Below are positions 18,365 through 64,000 of a stretch of DNA of 64,000 bases, one piece after another (within the stretch, counting starts at the first letter, position 1; every line of letters begins with the position of its first letter). The stretch spans positions 20,645 to 84,644 of IMG/VR virus record IMGVR_UViG_3300033144_006256; one strand, written 5' to 3'. The notes beneath the pieces were generated by a model. The model did no database searches. It saw only the letters and a list, made by a program, of their open reading frames with translations, and was not told where the DNA came from. The translations under genes were made by a program, and so were the position numbers. Source of the DNA: a virus.

Positions 18365-18747
18365 AGAAAAAATTAACAACACAGCAAAAAATAAGAAAGC
18401 TACAAAAAAAGGCAGATAGTTTATATCATCAAATAATTTGTAAAAGATTTCCAAAATGTTTAGTATGCGAAGTTAATGATAGCCAATGTGCTCACCACTT
18501 TGTCAGGAAAAGCCAGTCAGCAGAATTACGCTATAATTTTTCTAATGGGATAAATATCTGTGCAAAATGCCATACACTACATCATAGAACAGGCGATCCT
18601 AGAATACACGATACAATTATAAGAAAAAAAGGCACAAAATGGGCAGATGAACTTTATAAGATTAAAAATAAAGTTAATAAACAATACAAAGGTATTGAAT
18701 ATTACGAAAATATAATTAGTAATTTTGAAAGAATATTAAATGAATAA
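18361..18747 (+). CDS. NinG/Rap-like HNH nuclease
   Basis: CxxC, AHH, RY...NG...CxxCH. Confidence 0.75.
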   Translation: MKKKLTTQQKIRKLQKKADSLYHQIICKRFPKCLVCEVNDSQCAHHFVRKSQSAELRYNFSNGINICAKCHTLHHRTGDPRIHDTIIRKKGTKWADELYKIKNKVNKQYKGIEYYENIISNFERILNE

Positions 18748-24076: not shown

Positions 24077-24943
24077 ATGAAAATCAATCAAATAAAAGTT
24101 TGTAAAAGGTTTAGAAAAGATCTTGGTGACTTAGAAGAATTAAAAAAATCAATTAAAGAAATAGGGCTTTTACAACCAATAGTTGTTGATGAAAATAATA
24201 ATTTAATAGCTGGACAAAGAAGATTACAAGCATTTAAAGAATTAAGTATCACTGATATAGATGTGAATATAATAAAAATAGATAGTAGTTTAAAAGGTGA
24301 ATATGATGAAAATGTTATAAGGAAACAATTTACACCGACAGAGGGGGTTAAAATATGGGAAGCAATGAAAAGTTATCAGGGGAAAAATCAATATACACAA
24401 GAGGATGTGTCCAATTTGGACACAAGCAAAAAAAGAGATAGGGCAGCTAAAGCAACAAAGATAGGAAGAACAAATCTTTCAAAGGCAAAACAAGTTATAG
24501 AATATGGGGATAAGGATATAATAAAAGAAATGGATAAAACCGAGAATATTAGTGGAGCATACAGTAAAATTAAAACAGCAAAAACACTAGCAGATATTGA
24601 ACAACAAAAAAAAGATATAGCAAGTGGCAAAATAAAACTTCCAGAAGGTGTATTTGAAAATATAGTTGTAGATCCGCCTTGGGATTACAAATCAGAATAT
24701 AATGCAGAAACACGAAGATCAGCTAATAAATATCCACCAATGACGTTAGAAGAAATAGAAAATATTAAATTACCATTAGCGGATGATTGTATATTATGGT
24801 TTTGGACAACACAAGCATTTATCTTTGAAGCTAAAAGAATACTTGATAATTGGGGTTTTGATTATAAAGGAATGTTAATTTGGGATAAAGGGCAAATGGG
24901 TCAAGGTTATTGGCTAAGAATGCAATGTGAGTTCTGTGATTAG
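24077..24943 (+). CDS. ParB/Srx N-domain fused to an MT-A70 methyltransferase, C-terminally truncated
   Basis: GLLQPIVV...LIAGQRRL; DPPW, WTT, WGF.Y, G.GYWLR.Q.EFC, then an abrupt stop. Confidence 0.8.
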   Translation: MKINQIKVCKRFRKDLGDLEELKKSIKEIGLLQPIVVDENNNLIAGQRRLQAFKELSITDIDVNIIKIDSSLKGEYDENVIRKQFTPTEGVKIWEAMKSYQGKNQYTQEDVSNLDTSKKRDRAAKATKIGRTNLSKAKQVIEYGDKDIIKEMDKTENISGAYSKIKTAKTLADIEQQKKDIASGKIKLPEGVFENIVVDPPWDYKSEYNAETRRSANKYPPMTLEEIENIKLPLADDCILWFWTTQAFIFEAKRILDNWGFDYKGMLIWDKGQMGQGYWLRMQCEFCD

Positions 24944-25253
24944 ATTTTTTAAACAAGGGGTAAATGCATCTGATTTATTTAATGGTAATTATTTTAATAC
25001 AAGAAGATTAGCTTTAAATAAACCAGCACCAACAATTACAAAAACTAAAGCATTATTACATCCGACAGAAGACAGATGGCTTACAATAGAAGAATGTAAA
25101 GCTATATCAACTTTCCCAAAAGATTTCAAATTTATTGGCTCATATAATAACCAATGGGCAAGAATAAGGAATGCTGTTATGCCAAAATTTATGGAAGCGA
25201 TTGCGTTACATATTAAAAAAGAAATATTAGAAAAATACTATGAAAACAATTAA
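24927..25253 (+). pseudogene. C-terminal fragment of a C5-cytosine DNA methyltransferase
   Basis: P.PTIT, HP.E.R.LT.EEC..I..FP..F.F.G, NAV.P (motifs IX-X only). Confidence 0.75.
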
Positions 25254-25422
25254 CCTTATATGCCAACAATGTGGCACAAAACTATTAAAACAACCACAGA
25301 ACATAAATAAGAGGCAACAACCTTTTTCTACTTGGTATAATGGCTTTTGTGATGTATGTGGTAAAGAAAAAACAGTGACTGAAAACCGTGATTTTGGCTA
25401 TTTAAAAGAAAAAAATGATTAA
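25240..25422 (+). CDS. Small Zn-ribbon protein
   Basis: CQQC...CDVCG...TE.RDFG. Confidence 0.6.
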   Translation: MKTINLICQQCGTKLLKQPQNINKRQQPFSTWYNGFCDVCGKEKTVTENRDFGYLKEKND

Positions 25423-25570
25423 CTATAAAAACAAATATCCATTATCTACCCTTAATACTTAATAAAATAACAGATATAGAAATAATGGGTAATAATCATT
25501 CAACAGAGCAAGGAATACAATATAAGCATATTAGAAACGCAATTAATAATATAATAGAAAGTTAAAAAAT

Positions 25571-25675
25571 ATGAAAACTAAAAAACCTTGTCCAAGTTCA
25601 AAAATCCGTTCTAAAGGTAAAGGACGTGGGTTAGGTATAGGAAAAGGTAAGGGACCGATAGGAAGAAGAAAATAA
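25571..25675 (+). CDS. 34-aa Gly/Lys/Arg-rich basic peptide (not in ORF track)
   Basis: MKTKKPCPSSKIRSKGKGRGLGIGKGKGPIGRRK. Confidence 0.55.
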   Translation: MKTKKPCPSSKIRSKGKGRGLGIGKGKGPIGRRK

Positions 25676-25730
25676 CTTATAACCTGTTATAACTTTAATA
25701 AATTAAAAAAAACATATAGTAAAGGATAAA

Positions 25731-25886
25731 ATGCCTACTGTATCAGAAGAAAAGAAAAAAGAATATTTAGCACTTATAAGAAGATTATTAGTTATGAATC
25801 CAAATATAACTGTTTTAGGTATTCAATCAGCATTAGAAAATAGTAAAAATAGTTTTAATCGATTTTTTTATAAAAATATGTTATAA
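25731..25886 (+). pseudogene. Orphaned 5' stub of the putative small terminase gene
   Basis: MPTVSEEKKKEYLALIRRLLVMNPNITVLGIQSALENSK matches the N-terminus of 26657-27148. Confidence 0.8.
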
Positions 25887-25951
25887 TATATTTATAGGGA
25901 CGAGAAATATTTTTTATGCCTGCCAATGGCTCGTCCCTGAGGTAGGCTTTT
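25879..25951 (+). promoter_or_regulatory. Extended -10 promoter plus attenuator/pseudoknot leader
   Basis: TGtTATAAT; AGGGACGAG (25896) pairs with CTCGTCCCT in the loop of GCCTGCC/GGTAGGC-TTTT. Confidence 0.65.
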
Positions 25952-25963
25952 AAGTATATTATT

Positions 25964-26652
25964 ATGCCATCAGGAGTTTATAAAAGAAGTGAATTAGAAA
26001 AAAATAGATTATATAATAATCTAAAATATAGTATTAGGGTTGGTATGACTGGCAAAAAGCATTCAGAGCATTCAAAAAAGAAGATGAGTAATTCTAAATT
26101 AGGTAAGCATTATTCGACAAGGACTGAGTTTAAAAAAGGTAACCCACCGTGGAATAAAGGCAAAAAATTATCAGATGAATATAGAAAAAAATTAAGTGAA
26201 TCACATAAGGGGTTGCAATCTTATTGGAAAGGCAGAAAAAGAGGAGCGATGTCAGATGAATGGAAAAGAAAAATATCAGAAGCTAATAGGGGGGGGCTAA
26301 AGGGAACGCTTGGAAAGGTGGTATAACAAAAAAACATTTTGCAGAAAGAAATAATGTTGAAATTAAAATTTGGAAGGCTAATATTTTTAAAAAATATAAT
26401 TGGTCTTGTAGAAAATGTGGTAAAATAGGTGGTAGGTTGCAAGCCCACCATATATATAATTTTTCTAGTCACATTAATTTTAGATCTAAGATTGATAATG
26501 GTATATTACTATGCAACGAATGCCATAAAGAATTTCATAAAATATATAAAAGGGTAAATAATAATATAGAGCAAATAGATATTTTTATAAATGGTTATAA
26601 TACTATAAAACAGTTTTTAAGGGATAATTATAAAGAAATATTTTGTGATTAA
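25964..26652 (+). pseudogene. NUMOD3-repeat HNH homing endonuclease, frameshifted at a G8 run
   Basis: KHSE..K.KMS and PWNKGK repeats; the second frame continues WKGGIT...CRKCG...AHH...NG.LLC.ECH..FH; G8 at 26289-26296. Confidence 0.8.
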
Positions 26653-26656
26653 AAAT

Positions 26657-27148
26657 ATGCCAGCATATAGTGAAGAGAAAAAAAATCAATTTATGGAGTA
26701 TATTAGAAGGCTATTAGTTATGAGTCCTAATATTTCTATTTTATCAATACAAGAATCTCTTGAAAAAAGTAAAGGGATAAGGCTAGATAAAGATTATATA
26801 CATAAACTAAGAAACAAAATATTTGCAGAAAGAGCGAATAGGTATAATTATTATACTATAAAAAAATTGTTGCCAGAATATAGTGACGAAATAGAAATAA
26901 TTAAAAGTAGATTGTGGAGCATATTAAATAACAAAGATGCTGAAGATAGAGATAAAATTAGGGCTCTAAGTGAAATAAGAAATTCAAGTAAAGATTTACT
27001 AAACGCTATGGCTGATGCTGGCGTATTTACAAGGGAGATAGGAAAACTTGATACTGGTATGGCTGAAATAGTAAAGATGATTAAAGAATACTACCCTAAA
27101 AAAGAAATAAAGCCAGAAGATGTGCCAGGTGAAGCACCGCAGGAATAG
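26657..27148 (+). CDS. Putative terminase small subunit
   Basis: Helical, with HTH-like N-terminus; lies in the region upstream of terL. The call is positional. Confidence 0.5.
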   Translation: MPAYSEEKKNQFMEYIRRLLVMSPNISILSIQESLEKSKGIRLDKDYIHKLRNKIFAERANRYNYYTIKKLLPEYSDEIEIIKSRLWSILNNKDAEDRDKIRALSEIRNSSKDLLNAMADAGVFTREIGKLDTGMAEIVKMIKEYYPKKEIKPEDVPGEAPQE

Positions 27149-27504
27149 TGTTAGAAGCCCCAAAATTGCGTTCTAAGGGGTTTTAAAGTAAAAAGTAATT
27201 ATAATATACATTATGGAAAAAGAAACATTTGATGCAATAAGAATAATAATATCTTGTTTTGGCTTATCTGTCGCAATAATAGGATTTTTTTATGGAAGTA
27301 ATCACAGGATATACAGGGTTTATGGTTTTTAATGCTTTGGCTATATTCGCTTGGAGTATTTATTTAAGAAAAATTTATATTGAAAATAAGTAGCTTATCT
27401 AAGCCAAAAGTGCTAATTCTATGGGGGGTTCATTTTACATAATAGTTAAAATATGAAACAAGAAGATTGGCAAAAAATATAAGGTTTATTAGAAAGGCAA
27501 AAAA

Positions 27505-27741
27505 ATGAAAAAACATAATCCATATAAACTAACTATAGAAAAAATAGAAAACGGCTTTTTGCTAACCCATAATGAACAACTTGACGATGATTGGGTAAAA
27601 GAACGCAAGGAAGCAATCATAGAAGATGATGATGAAGAAAAAGAAATAGTAGCAGTGCTTCAACAAGTAGCTGAATATTTTGGTATTTATAATAGCAAAC
27701 ATAAAGAAAGAAATTTAGAGATAGGATTTAAAAAAAATTGA
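27505..27741 (+). CDS. Hypothetical protein
   Basis: AGAAAGG RBS; IEKIENGF motif. Confidence 0.6.
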   Translation: MKKHNPYKLTIEKIENGFLLTHNEQLDDDWVKERKEAIIEDDDEEKEIVAVLQQVAEYFGIYNSKHKERNLEIGFKKN

Positions 27742-27818
27742 TAAAGTATTTGATATAGTATATTGTTTTAGAATGATTAAAATTATTTGGTGAATATTGG
27801 GATAGTATGTGGTATTAA

Positions 27819-27891
27819 GCAGATGTAGTTTAACTGTTAAAACTATCATTCCAACAAAATGATTTTAGCGGTACAACTCCGTTCATCTGCA
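27819..27891 (+). tRNA. Degenerate tRNA-like RNA (Gly-like body, atypical loops)
   Basis: GCAGATG/CATCTGC acceptor, GTTT/AAAC D stem, ATCATT/AATGAT anticodon stem, AGCGG/CCGTT T stem with TACAACT loop. Confidence 0.55.
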
Positions 27892-27924
27892 CAGGTTTTT
27901 TAACATTAAATAAAGGAGGGAATA

Positions 27925-28419
27925 ATGACAATAATACCAGTAGTAATTATTGTATTAAAGAAATGTAACCATTTTGTATTAGTAGTTAATTCAACTAAAC
28001 TCAATGGAAAAGCATTCCCAGGTGGTAAAATTAAATTTGGTGAAACAATAAGAGAAGCAACAATGCGTGAAGCGAAAGAAGAATTAGGTATTGATGTTAA
28101 GGTTGAAAGAATAATCGGGTATGGTGAAATGATAACAGCTGGATATGCAGGTGATAGAAAATATTTATCATATGCAGAACTAAACGCACTGCCAGAAACA
28201 CAGAAAAGAAATTTTATTAATCCGTGTAGTAAAAAACATTATTTATTCTATACAGTCCTTTGTTCAAAGAAATTTAAGAATAGCAGAGTAGTATTGAATG
28301 AAGAAGCCACAGAATGTTTTTGGGTCACAATTAATGAGTTAGAAGAATGTGGGTTAAATGGAATTTGGGAACAGCCGATAGGACACATTAAACAATCAAT
28401 GTTTAAAAATCCATATTAG
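27925..28419 (+). CDS. NUDIX hydrolase
   Basis: PGG...GET..EA.MRE.KEELG Nudix box. Confidence 0.9.
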   Translation: MTIIPVVIIVLKKCNHFVLVVNSTKLNGKAFPGGKIKFGETIREATMREAKEELGIDVKVERIIGYGEMITAGYAGDRKYLSYAELNALPETQKRNFINPCSKKHYLFYTVLCSKKFKNSRVVLNEEATECFWVTINELEECGLNGIWEQPIGHIKQSMFKNPY

Positions 28420-28496
28420 TTCTTTATCAAATAAGAAATATGGTATAACTGTTAAAAGAATACAAAGATTTTGTTTATAATACTTCCAATATTCTT

Positions 28497-28538
28497 AAAA
28501 GGGGGCGGAATGCTAATGATGCAATATCCGCCCCAAAA
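28497..28538. terminator. Terminator-like GC hairpin where NUDIX and element B transcription converge
   Basis: GGGGCGGA/TCCGCCCC flanked by A runs. Confidence 0.55.
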
Positions 28539-28552
28539 TACTAATATTTCCA

Positions 28553-29205
28553 AGTATTATTTAAGGTTTTGTTATTAGTTTTATACTTCCGATACAAACT
28601 TCGCTACGCTCGTTGCTTTTGTATAAAACACCCTTCGCTACGCTACGGGGTTTTCTATCAAAAGCGGTTTTCTTTTTTCTATAATCTTTTCTAAACTTTT
28701 TCTTTATTGTTTATATTTATCTGCTTAGTGTTGGCATAGTTATCCCATAGCGATATTTAAAAAAATATAACCTTATAATGCCTTCTGTGGAGTTTTTCTA
28801 AAGACTAAGTTACTATCCTTAAACAAATGTTACAAAAAAAATGTAAATTTGGCGGCCTCTTTTCCTATATTACCATTGGATAGCATCCCATTTCGGAAAG
28901 GTCGTGCTTTTGCACACATAGAGTATTGATTTTGCTGATGCAACTATCACGCTTTAGAATTAAGGAGGAGTGGTTACCTTCAAGTATGCTCTCCCCACAG
29001 GATTAACAAACTATATCATATGTAGTAGGGTGATTAGATAAAAGCACATAAGCACACTTACTTTATCTTATTCGTTCCCTACATTTTACAAGCAAAAAAC
29101 ACCCAATAAAGGGTGTCTGATGCAATGAGATATAATATTTTACCAATTTCTTGGCATACAAATTTGTCGATAAAATTGTAATTTATATTATATTCCATTA
29201 ACCAT
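28553..29205 (-). ncRNA. Large non-coding structured element, copy B (homolog of 4914-5620)
   Basis: Same ordered motifs as copy A, on the minus strand. Confidence 0.6.
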
Positions 29206-29234
29206 ATTATAATTTACTTTTAAAAAATTGTCAA
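29206..29234 (-). promoter_or_regulatory. Consensus sigma70 promoter of element B, abutting the terL ATG
   Basis: TTGACA-N17-TATAAT on the minus strand. Confidence 0.85.
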
Positions 29235-30704
29235 ATGGATAAACAAGAATTAGAAAATATAGCAGAGTCACAATTAAATTTTAGTGAATTTATTAAAAGA
29301 ATATTCTCTAAAAGTTTTGATAAATTTATCGGTGGGCAATACCCAACAGATGTTGCTAATTTTATGCAATATTATCACGATAAAGGGAAAAATACGATTA
29401 GAATATCAGCAAGGTTGCACGGAAAATCAACTTTTATTTATGCATATATAATGTGGCTAATATTCAGAATGGATAAAGATTTATCCATTATTTATTTTTC
29501 ATATAGCGGGAAAATGTCCGCATACCATATAACTAAGATAAAAAAACTAATACAGAACAATCCATACTTTAATGAACTTATTGATTTAAAACCAACAGCA
29601 GAAACACTAATGGCATATAGGTGGAAGAACAGCAAACACGAAGTAACAGTTAACCCACAAGGGCTATTAGGGTTTAAGCGAGGTTTACACAGCTCAGTAG
29701 TTATTATAGATGACCCATATTCTATTGACAAAGAAATTGTAAATGAAGTAGTAAACTTTTCAAATGTTGCCAAAATAAATAATATTATTAAAGCACAGGT
29801 GTTAGATATACCATATGTTGATGGCGGTGAAATACATATAGTTGGCACGCCATTTTCAAATGATGATGTGTTTTTTGATAAAGAATTAAGAAAGATGTTT
29901 GCATTCTGGCAAGCCCCAGCGATTAAAGATGAAAAGAATAAAATAGCATTATGGCCTGAATATATGGATTGGGATGAATTAATGAAAAGGAAAGTAACCA
30001 GAAGTAATTTTTTTGCCCGTGAATATCTTTGCCAGCCGATAATTGCAAGCGAAGGGTATCTTACAAAAGAACAAGTATTAAGTGTAGTTGACGATAGCTT
30101 AACAAATAACGATATTTATGATATAATGACAACGCCTGCAAATACAATAGCAGGATTTGATATAGGAAAGAAGCTACACCCATCAGCAATAACTGTCCTT
30201 AGATGGGATGGGACAGCTTATAAAGAGATATACAATAGATTTTTAGATAATTGGGATTATACAAATGGCGGAGAATTTGACCCTGATAATCCAACACAAT
30301 TAGAATTATTAAAACTTGTAGTAAAGAATTTAAAAGTTGATATTTTATACTTTGATAATACTCGTGGGGAATTTGAAGCGTTTATAGAAACACAGAGCTT
30401 GCCACAACAGGCAATCCCAGTAGTATTTTCTTTAAAAGAAAAAACAGCTATGGCAATGCATCTTAGCAATGCCATAACTGAAAAACTAATTTTAATACAA
30501 AACAAACAGAGATCTATCAACAGTTTATTATCTGTTATGAAAGATTTACAATCAATAGAAACACCAGAAGGTCACGGGGATATGTTTTGGGCAATGGCAT
30601 TGGCTGCAAAAGCCCTTTATGAAATACACCCAAGAGAAGGTGGGGCAAAAGTATCCACAGGTTCACCATCAATAGTAGATGGCGAAATACCGAAAGGATA
30701 CTAA
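29235..30704 (+). CDS. terL: Terminase large subunit
   Basis: Walker A variant ARLHGKST, Walker B VIIDD, VGTP, nuclease motifs GFDIG and HGDMFWAMALA. Confidence 0.9.
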   Translation: MDKQELENIAESQLNFSEFIKRIFSKSFDKFIGGQYPTDVANFMQYYHDKGKNTIRISARLHGKSTFIYAYIMWLIFRMDKDLSIIYFSYSGKMSAYHITKIKKLIQNNPYFNELIDLKPTAETLMAYRWKNSKHEVTVNPQGLLGFKRGLHSSVVIIDDPYSIDKEIVNEVVNFSNVAKINNIIKAQVLDIPYVDGGEIHIVGTPFSNDDVFFDKELRKMFAFWQAPAIKDEKNKIALWPEYMDWDELMKRKVTRSNFFAREYLCQPIIASEGYLTKEQVLSVVDDSLTNNDIYDIMTTPANTIAGFDIGKKLHPSAITVLRWDGTAYKEIYNRFLDNWDYTNGGEFDPDNPTQLELLKLVVKNLKVDILYFDNTRGEFEAFIETQSLPQQAIPVVFSLKEKTAMAMHLSNAITEKLILIQNKQRSINSLLSVMKDLQSIETPEGHGDMFWAMALAAKALYEIHPREGGAKVSTGSPSIVDGEIPKGY

Positions 30705-40186: not shown

Positions 40187-40258
40187 AGCAGGGTAGAATA
40201 GCGGTAGCTCATTGGGCTTATATCCAAAAGGTCGTCGGTTCGAACCAGACCCCCGCCA
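40187..40258 (+). tRNA. Initiator-tRNA-derived, degenerate tRNA with TAT anticodon
   Basis: Canonical arm lengths, GGTTCGAAC T loop, AGGTC variable loop, unpaired 1:72; mismatches in every stem. Confidence 0.6.
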
Positions 40259-40318
40259 CAATTATAATATGATAGAATCATAGAAACACGTTATAGGCGT
40301 GAAATTAAGGAAAAATAA

Positions 40319-63657: not shown

Positions 63658-64000
63658 ATGTTAAAATCCCAAAAACCATTTAGAGGACTTTTACCAAACC
63701 CAGCACACCCTCATAGAAAAGGGCTTGTTGGTCAATGGATAATGAACGAGCAGTCTGGCTTGTATCTAAATGATATGAGCGGGAATGGGAATGCTGGGAC
63801 TATTGTTGGTGCGAGTTGGGGGATTGGTGGAGTAGATTGTACTGGAGGGGGAATTGATTATAGTGCTTTACCTACTGCTTTATCACCCCCGTATTCATTG
63901 GTTTTTACTTTTAAAGCACCAGGTACTGCATCTGGGCAATACATTTTTGATTGTGATAATGGACCTTTATTTATATACCCAGAAAGTAGCCTAATATATA
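63658..64000 (+). CDS. LamG/concanavalin A-like virion protein, 3' partial
   Basis: HP..KGLVG.W.MNE.SG....D.SGNGN.GT..GA.W. Confidence 0.7.
   Translation, partial: MLKSQKPFRGLLPNPAHPHRKGLVGQWIMNEQSGLYLNDMSGNGNAGTIVGASWGIGGVDCTGGGIDYSALPTALSPPYSLVFTFKAPGTASGQYIFDCDNGPLFIYPESSLIY

Follow-up and report, generated by a model that had tools for sequence, protein, structure and literature searches.

We analyzed a 64,000-nt stretch of viral DNA, hereafter called the window, which comprises bases 20645-84644 of the 84.6-kb IMG/VR virus record IMGVR_UViG_3300033144_006256 (estimated completeness, 80%). Within the window, the start of a putative small terminase gene (a terS-like gene) occurs twice on the same strand, and a gene for an HNH endonuclease lies between the two copies. 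The upstream copy is a stub that ends in an unrelated tail, and the downstream copy is the beginning of a complete gene for a protein of 163 amino acids. The window has a G+C content of approximately 28%, and its compositional profile shows no break across this region. The features of the locus are listed in Table 1.

The stub open reading frame (ORF), which spans positions 25731-25886 and encodes 51 amino acids, was aligned with the first 40 residues of the 163-amino-acid product with 24 identities (60%; E value of 1e-15). This bears out the homology between the stub and the start of the gene at 26657 that had been noticed in a preliminary description of this DNA. At the nucleotide level, 78 of 117 positions (66.7%) are the same in 25731-25847 and 26657-26773, and a repeat search returned the stub and the gene start as a 102-nt direct repeat with 71% identity and a spacing of 926. 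The homology starts at the ATG and breaks off sharply past codon 39. In an all-versus-all comparison of the open frames of at least 30 amino acids in the 84.6-kb record, this was the sole pair composed of a stub and a full-length gene.

The substitutions between the two copies are distributed as expected of protein-coding genes under selection to conserve the protein: 26, 31, and 21 of the 39 nucleotides are identical at codon positions 1, 2, and 3, respectively. The nonsynonymous divergence (dN) was 0.30 and the synonymous divergence (dS) was about 2, which is near saturation, giving a dN/dS ratio of about 0.15. The stub, the intact copy, and the closest outside relative (L006/P0002; contigs related to the record carry L numbers) were mutually equidistant, with a dN of 0.30 in all three pairs. 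Because dS is saturated, the protein is conserved, and the two copies are equidistant from each other and from L006, the alleles stem from different lineages. Judging from these substitution patterns, the two copies are old alleles that were kept under purifying selection in separate lineages before they came to lie side by side. The same values led us to reject a tandem duplication in situ followed by decay of one copy, since the copies are as distant from each other as each is from L006. The preliminary description spoke of a recoded replacement 5' end; the replacement proved to be a diverged allele, but it is not synonymously recoded, as 16 of the 39 residues differ.

The gene between the two copies encodes NUMOD3 and HNH domains, as the preliminary description had stated, and is split between two frames by a -1 frameshift. 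Its HNH part was recognized by PF13391 (23.7 bits, with a cut-off of 21) and, in a six-frame search, by PF01844 (25.4 bits), and the translation of 26332-26652 contains all of the metal-finger residues (CxxC, HH, N, and CxxCH). The gene product also matched PHROG 314 and 655, both annotated as homing endonuclease, and a PDB sequence search with the HNH part returned only a chance-level match to McrA. When the two frames were joined with an X at the break, the resulting 229-residue product aligned continuously with the 213-amino-acid HNH protein of the related contig L020 (E value of 5e-25), and two larger HNH proteins, encoded in unrelated phage contexts, aligned with it in their C-terminal parts. 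We recovered about 18 distinct related contigs, with protein identities of 38 to 57%, and in none of them does an HNH gene adjoin the terS-like gene; related HNH genes occupy unrelated sites in other phages. By its NUMOD3 module and its sporadic distribution, the gene product is classed as a homing-type endonuclease. Separately, two of the related contigs contain HNH genes 2-3 kb upstream of the terS-like gene (L020:418-1059 and L011:2-238). HNH genes frequent this boundary region between early and late genes without adjoining terS.

A packaging-associated HNH protein was considered as another identity for the product of this gene. HNH proteins of the HK97 gp74 type, which are associated with packaging, adjoin terminase genes. 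The same arrangement is found for the GVE2-like HrdP of Skunavirus, the HNH gene of which adjoins the terminase genes (PMC12724721). The window resembles these phages in that its HNH gene adjoins terminase genes, but packaging HNH proteins are conserved in all members of a family and are devoid of NUMOD3, whereas the HNH gene of the window is absent from this site in the relatives, contains NUMOD3 repeats, and is frameshifted. We therefore rejected an HNH protein of the HK97 gp74 or GVE2 type.

A search of 25000-29300 against Rfam with E values of up to 1 revealed no group I intron or other intron-like RNA; the only matches were one tRNA and two chance-level hits. A group I intron was rejected on these grounds and since the sequences flanking the HNH gene are homologous, not complementary, to each other. 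An intein was rejected by the ORF layout: the endonuclease ORF has its own start and stop codons, follows a stop codon, precedes the ATG of the terS-like gene, and lies outside the frame of the host gene. The intron-free and intein-free layout given in the preliminary description was thus upheld.

Table 1. Features at the duplicated terS-like locus (window coordinates)
Feature	Position	Strand	Basis
ParB_N + MT-A70 methylase gene, cut off past profile position 78 of 172	24077-24943	+	Pfam
C5 cytosine methylase C-terminal fragment (profile positions 234-324 of 324); left end of putative 921-bp patch	24927-25253	+	Pfam
Two small ORFs in the putative patch: 60-amino-acid zinc-ribbon-like (25240-25422) and 34-amino-acid basic (25571-25675)	25240-25675	+	ORF list, weak zinc-finger matches
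Family-typical ribosome-binding motif TAAAGGATAAA, directly before the stub ATG	25720-25730	+	Comparison of ~20 relatives
Stub, codons 1-39 of a diverged terS-like allele	25731-25847	+	Protein and DNA homology, structure model
Unrelated 12-codon tail and stop codon of the stub ORF	25848-25886	+	Sequence, alignment
Extended -10-like motif TGTTATAAT	25879-25887	+	Sequence; unflagged by sigma-70 scan
9-bp G+C-rich hairpin ahead of the HNH gene	25896-25904 with 25930-25938	+	Sequence
HNH gene, N-terminal frame, three NUMOD3 motifs	25964-26326	+	Pfam NUMOD3 (E value of 1.8e-13); PHROG homing endonuclease
G8 homopolymer, frame shift of -1	26289-26296	+	Frame comparison
HNH gene, C-terminal frame, CxxC...HH...N...CxxCH, with a 19-amino-acid tail beyond the end of homologues	26296-26652	+	Pfam HNH_2 and HNH, PHROG HNH, alignment to L020/L004/L005
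TAAGGGATAA, probable vestige of the ribosome-binding motif of the intact copy, inside the HNH tail	26618-26627	+	Exact-match search, relative L006
Intact 163-amino-acid terS-like gene (putative small terminase)	26657-27148	+	Position in relatives, model
Large terminase gene	29235-30704	+	PHROG 38 (E value of 1.6e-24); 41% identity to large terminase of L001 and L031

The duplicated gene belongs to an uncharacterized family that comprises 436 clusters at 50% identity, and its product matched no sequence in Pfam, PHROG, or PDB. In the relatives, the gene follows ParB-like and methylase genes and directly precedes the gene of the large terminase, which it usually overlaps (the two are overlapping or adjacent in L001, L010, L011, and L031). 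In the window, the two genes are separated by 2.1 kb (27149-29234). The confident AlphaFold model of the protein, with a predicted local distance difference test score of 89.9, contains helices at residues 6-22 and 28-39, a helical hairpin formed by residues 45-91 and 97-120, and a C-terminal helix, so that the predicted N-terminal architecture is a helix-turn-helix followed by a long helical hairpin. Weak fold matches to the small terminases of G20c and P74-26 recurred (Foldseek E values of 0.3-0.6), and the VIA fold match was weak as well (Z score of 7.1 and root mean square deviation of 8.9 over 109 residues). The preliminary description called the gene a putative small terminase. On the basis of position and modeled architecture this is still the best assignment, and we retain it as putative, although the sequence profiles of Pfam and PHROG lend it nothing. 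In the model, the stub ends where helix 2 ends, and the third helix of the putative DNA-binding domain would be absent from it.

The stub and the intact gene differ in the signals that precede them. In nearly all of about 20 relatives, a motif of the AAGGGATAA type precedes the terS-like ATG at a distance of 0-3 nt, and the stub has retained such a motif. The intact copy has no family-typical ribosome-binding motif right at its ATG. The sequence TAAGGGATAA, the sole exact copy of which in the window is situated 29 nt before the intact ATG, probably represents the displaced motif: in this region, 15 of 16 nt are equal to the sequence that precedes the ATG of L006. Since this displaced motif lies in the 19-residue overrun of the HNH gene, the intact allele appears to have brought its own upstream region along. 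The arrangement suggests that the HNH gene already sat in front of a complete terS-like gene when that allele and its upstream region arrived. In the family at large, we also noticed a conserved element of about 20 nt, AACCGT-A/T-A-A/T-ATAAGGGATAA, immediately before the terS-like ATG in L012, L015, L018, L019, L020, L025, and L011. It is longer than ribosome binding needs and may be a regulatory or packaging-related site.

Two further elements of the preliminary description, a new promoter and a structured leader ahead of the HNH gene, held up in part. An extended -10-like motif is indeed present, but a sigma-70 scan did not flag it. The 9-bp G+C-rich stem is one of three distinct stems of this kind in 64 kb, compared with 0.27 expected, but over its full length of 128 nt the leader showed no folding advantage over shuffled sequences (z score of -0.94).

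The left junction, between codon 39 of the stub and its unrelated tail, carries an apparent AAAATAGT / AAAAATAGT microrepeat at 25837-25853, as read off the sequence. When 18 members of the family were compared, conservation in the 5' region proved lowest at codons 38-40, in the loop past helix 2, and it is here that the breakpoint lies. Codons 43-49, which encode LDKDYI and are more conserved in DNA than any other stretch of the gene, begin 10 nt beyond it. The position of the breakpoint is compatible with a nuclease that recognizes the conserved site, and it is compatible with chance as well. An 11-nt exact repeat flanks the HNH unit (25903-25913 and 26634-26644); by our own estimate, it is within chance for A+T-rich DNA.

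We interpret the region as the scar of an allele replacement, in which the HNH gene and the intact allele would have been imported together by break repair that was completed through one illegitimate joint. We assign this interpretation a probability of roughly 0.45. The odds that the HNH enzyme itself supplied the break, which would make the event a case of one-sided homing, seem to us about even. In the donor lineage, a free-standing NUMOD3-HNH gene would have been located upstream of a complete terS gene and would have ended over the ribosome-binding region of that gene. During a mixed infection, the terS gene of another lineage would have been broken at about codon 39 and repaired from the donor. 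The HNH enzyme would be the most likely cutter, and its own neighboring allele differs in sequence. On the right side, repair could have proceeded through terS homology; on the left side, where there would have been no homology upstream of the HNH gene, it would have ended in illegitimate joining. The first 39 codons of the displaced allele would thereby have been left behind, together with their ribosome-binding motif, as a dead stub. Function would have been kept without splicing, in that the whole gene, or at least the whole in-frame 5' end, would have come with the nuclease gene. From this layout we infer not only the role of the HNH enzyme as the breaker but also the direction of transfer and how far the imported tract extends to the right.

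The preliminary description envisaged a tighter unit, in which an element inserted itself at about codon 39 and brought a diverged N terminus. In its strict form, a cassette composed of the promoter, the HNH gene, and exactly 39 codons would have joined the resident gene in frame at codon 39. The intact gene would then consist of foreign codons 1-39 fused to resident codons 40-163, and the cassette would go on homing into naive alleles, with its homology arms provided by the stub on one side and the gene body on the other. This form mirrors the gene-end replacements in atp6 of Allomyces and in atp6, atp9, cox2, and nad3 of Glomus (discussed below). It also agrees with the compactness of the unit, as the HNH gene starts only 116 nt from the stub junction, and with the homology of the copies starting at the ATG. 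On the other hand, there was no signal of chimerism at codon 39/40 of the intact gene: the dN relative to L006 was 0.30 for codons 1-39 and 0.28 for codons 40-134, a comparison of low power. The intact copy seems to hold a vestige of its own ribosome-binding motif, the HNH gene is frameshifted, and a second occurrence of the unit was found in none of the collections searched. We therefore regard the strict cassette as improbable. What stands of the insertion proposal is the descent of the stub from the 5' end of a diverged allele and the sporadic occurrence of the HNH gene. Because of the lack of a chimeric signal (with the low power just mentioned) and the vestige of a ribosome-binding motif, the import of a whole donor gene with the HNH gene upstream is at least as likely, as far as the sequence goes, as that of a cassette with just 39 codons. 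That the HNH gene and the replacement 5' end together form a self-contained homing element, which invades the essential small-terminase gene of rivals with no need of an intron or intein and with the stub as its left homology arm, is likewise unlikely in our estimate. Were it true, the element would be a weapon that overwrites the packaging-specificity gene of a competitor during co-infection, and a 5'-end mirror, in phages, of the mobile endonuclease ORFs of fungi.

Several observations weigh against an allele replacement driven by the HNH gene. The first is the state of that gene. Its reading frame is broken by the -1 shift in the G8 tract, where G9 would restore a single ORF of about 229 codons, so that the gene is either now inactivated (G8 instead of G9) or mis-assembled. 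The second is that the structure comes from a single metagenome assembly of an uncultured phage. The third is the lack of a close relative without the cassette: none was found in the phage GenBank collection, in IMG/VR, or in a set of 5.8 billion proteins. The first of these collections gave no match, the IMG/VR proteins included only a relative with 50% identity (and none when the large terminase was the query), and the protein set contained only one relative, with 55% identity. No longer proteins that start like the stub were found. The fourth is that two related contigs, L011 and L019, have a 5' stub directly before the full terS-like gene and no HNH gene in between. The last is a second broken-gene junction only 0.8 kb upstream of the stub.

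Reliance on a single record raises the possibility that the assembler joined reads from two co-occurring strains and that the stub and the intact gene never resided on one molecule. The record derives from one metagenome, and its ends contain a 295-nt repeat that suggests a mixture of strains or an imperfect end repeat. However, with an identity of just 67% between the copies and no repeats elsewhere of the sequences near the junction, an assembler would have had no shared sequence at which to cross over, and the analogous junction of L011 is identical in two independent samples. We consider an assembly artifact very unlikely. As to the repeat itself, the last 295 nt of the record (window positions 63706-64000) are 92% identical to positions 107-401 near the start of the genome, which could mean that the end repeat is imperfect or that strains were mixed at the closing point of a circular or permuted assembly.

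The scheme in the preliminary description left no room for relatives that lack the HNH gene and carry both N-terminal copies, and L011 and L019 are of this kind. In L011 (2416-3128), a 67-amino-acid ORF that consists of the first ~51 codons of the gene is followed by a full copy, the start codon of which overlaps the preceding stop codon (ATGA), and then by the large terminase gene. The junction recurs in L019 (1281-1530), a contig from another sample, and the stubs of this lineage measure 67-68 amino acids. From about codon 40 of the stub, over the final 127 nt that can be compared (L011 2536-2662), L011 and L019 show no difference; to the left, they differ by about 20% and have unrelated upstream genes. 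By this comparison, the stub of L011 and L019 persisted and itself became a site of crossover, at about codon 37-40. The breakpoint in L011 is unlike that in the window, and it must therefore reflect an independent event. The sequence of L011 shows that 5' stubs of terS can arise without an adjacent nuclease gene, which is no proof for the stub in the window. A search of loci that used a 12-sequence alignment revealed no further stubs. Proteins of the family with two matched stretches or with N-terminal extensions were also inspected and proved to be insertions or over-long gene calls, not fused duplicates. A small ORF with a CxxC motif precedes the stub in L011, as one does in the window.

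These stubs bear on a further alternative, namely, that the 51-amino-acid protein, with the first two helices of the DNA-binding domain of the terminase, has been selected as a regulator or decoy. The stub ORF is intact and preceded by a strong family-typical ribosome-binding motif, and the stub ORFs of L011 and L019 are intact as well, with stop codons that overlap the next start. Against such a function, the product would be without the third helix of the predicted helix-turn-helix and ends in 12 unrelated codons, and short proteins of this kind were not seen to form a family; L011 and L019, moreover, differ by recombination rather than by evolution in place and bear no sign of selection. 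A functional stub thus appears highly improbable.

The second junction supports the most serious competitor of the replacement scenario. Here, the gene for a ParB_N and MT-A70 methylase protein is truncated and abuts the C-terminal fragment of a C5 cytosine methylase gene. The full-length relative of the former in L032 has 374 amino acids, compared with 288 here, and the missing parts of both methylase genes were found nowhere else in a search of the phage's own genome. Judged by its two truncated genes, this junction is a joint of illegitimate recombination and indicates that patchwork independent of an endonuclease has happened at the locus. Given the second junction, the stub may be one end of a foreign patch. 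The 921 bp at 24927-25847, consisting of a methylase tail, two small ORFs, and a terS start, look like one piece of a related phage that is bounded by two illegitimate joints. A patch with two such joints could have originated without the nuclease, by insertion into a backbone that already contained HNH and terS. According to this explanation, the backbone already read ParB-MT-A70, HNH, and terS, and the 3' half of the methylase gene gave way to the 921-bp piece, through illegitimate recombination or a switch of template between aligned genomes; the HNH gene would be a bystander, and the stub would be the right end of the patch. Gene fragments do bound the piece on both sides, the order of an intact C5 methylase gene directly followed by a terS-like gene is native to L001, L020, and L025, and a single event would account for both junctions. 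The stubs of L011 and L019, which arose or persisted without an adjacent endonuclease, fit this explanation too. Yet right next to the stub lies a gene for an endonuclease, and endonucleases of this type are known to trigger such repair, and the layout mirrors proven endonuclease-borne replacements of gene ends. We regard the mosaic patch as possible but clearly short of even odds. If it is correct, the region is an ordinary mosaic junction, and its lesson is one of caution for gene callers, as the 51-amino-acid "gene" is then a dead gene start.

The closest parallels to an allele replacement with the HNH gene come from fungal mitochondria, where mobile endonuclease ORFs bring a foreign 3' end of atp6, atp9, cox2, or nad3 that replaces the native end in frame (PMC3630166). 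The native end is not lost but persists downstream as a remnant, and at the DNA level the copies share 64-81% identity (PMC3630166). Cases include atp6 of Allomyces macrogynus (Paquin et al. 1994, as cited in PMC3630166), atp6, atp9, cox2, and nad3 of Glomus, atp9 of Rhizopus, and cox2 of Mortierella (PMC3630166). In the window, as in these fungal hybrids but in mirror image, two diverged copies of a gene end flank an endonuclease ORF, one of them in frame and the other a remnant. Common to both would be an endonuclease accompanied by a diverged foreign gene end joined in frame, the absence of an intron or intein, an unexpressed remnant, and a similar level of divergence (64-81% identity there and 67% here). 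The window differs in that the 5' end, not the 3' end, would have been replaced, so that the remnant and the nuclease gene lie upstream; in that the host is a phage rather than an organelle; in that the nuclease is of the NUMOD3-HNH type rather than LAGLIDADG or GIY-YIG; and in that the nuclease has an ORF to itself, which at no point shares the reading frame of the host gene. The preliminary description suggested an intron-free and intein-free homing strategy. These fungal examples indicate that it is known in principle, and a 5'-end case in a phage would be a variant of it.

Phages themselves provide partial parallels. The free-standing endonucleases of T4-type phages perform intronless homing with co-conversion of the flanks (PMC2988022; for SegF, SegG, and MobE, also PMC2790892). 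As in the window, an intergenic endonuclease gene adjoins its presumed target in rivals, and sequence differences would protect the donor allele. Unlike in the window, both flanks share homology and nothing of the displaced allele is left behind; the window's case, in addition, is read from its sequence. One-sided homing in T4 involves illegitimate repair at microhomologies after resection (Parker, Belisle, and Belfort 1999, as described in PMC2988022). Homology on one side only is what we propose here, with a microhomology joint as the origin of the 25847/25848 junction, but the T4 work used engineered crosses between T4 and plasmids, whereas the event in the window would be deduced from a natural fossil. 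Breaks made by SegB are also known to generate duplications (PMC13096335). Finally, insertion of endonuclease genes has split phage genes into pieces, as with mobE in nrdA of Aeh1 and mobA in gene 60 of T4 (PMC2988022). There, too, an HNH-type gene is situated inside an essential phage gene with no intron or intein, but the halves complement each other and are both needed, whereas in the window the whole gene is present downstream and the piece upstream is redundant.

If the HNH enzyme drove the swap, the locus would record, as a natural fossil, a one-sided homing event that took place in a phage. It would imply that endonuclease genes can enter essential phage genes together with a replacement gene end, a route known mainly from fungal mitochondria. 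It would also imply that homing endonucleases exchange alleles of the packaging-recognition subunit between phages, which bears on packaging specificity and on the reshuffling of module boundaries.

The 2.1-kb insert between the terS-like and large terminase genes holds small ORFs, a tRNA-Val(AAC) gene (27819-27892), a NUDIX gene (27925-28419), and a noncoding stretch with reversed GC skew. On the minus strand, this stretch has a perfect promoter sequence (TTGACA and TATAAT with a spacing of 17) at 29234-29206 and a terminator-like hairpin at 29118-29097. The genome contains a second frame with an HNH motif (window positions 18460-18588; PF01844, E value of 4.7e-5; open frame of 131 amino acids), and no duplicated gene end was detected beside it at the protein level. 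ARAGORN identified a second tRNA gene in the window at 40187-40259 (tRNA-Ile, anticodon TAT). Before the window starts, the record carries two paralogous ORFs of ~380-390 amino acids with 42% identity (-6562 to -5387 and -2747 to -1605 in window coordinates).

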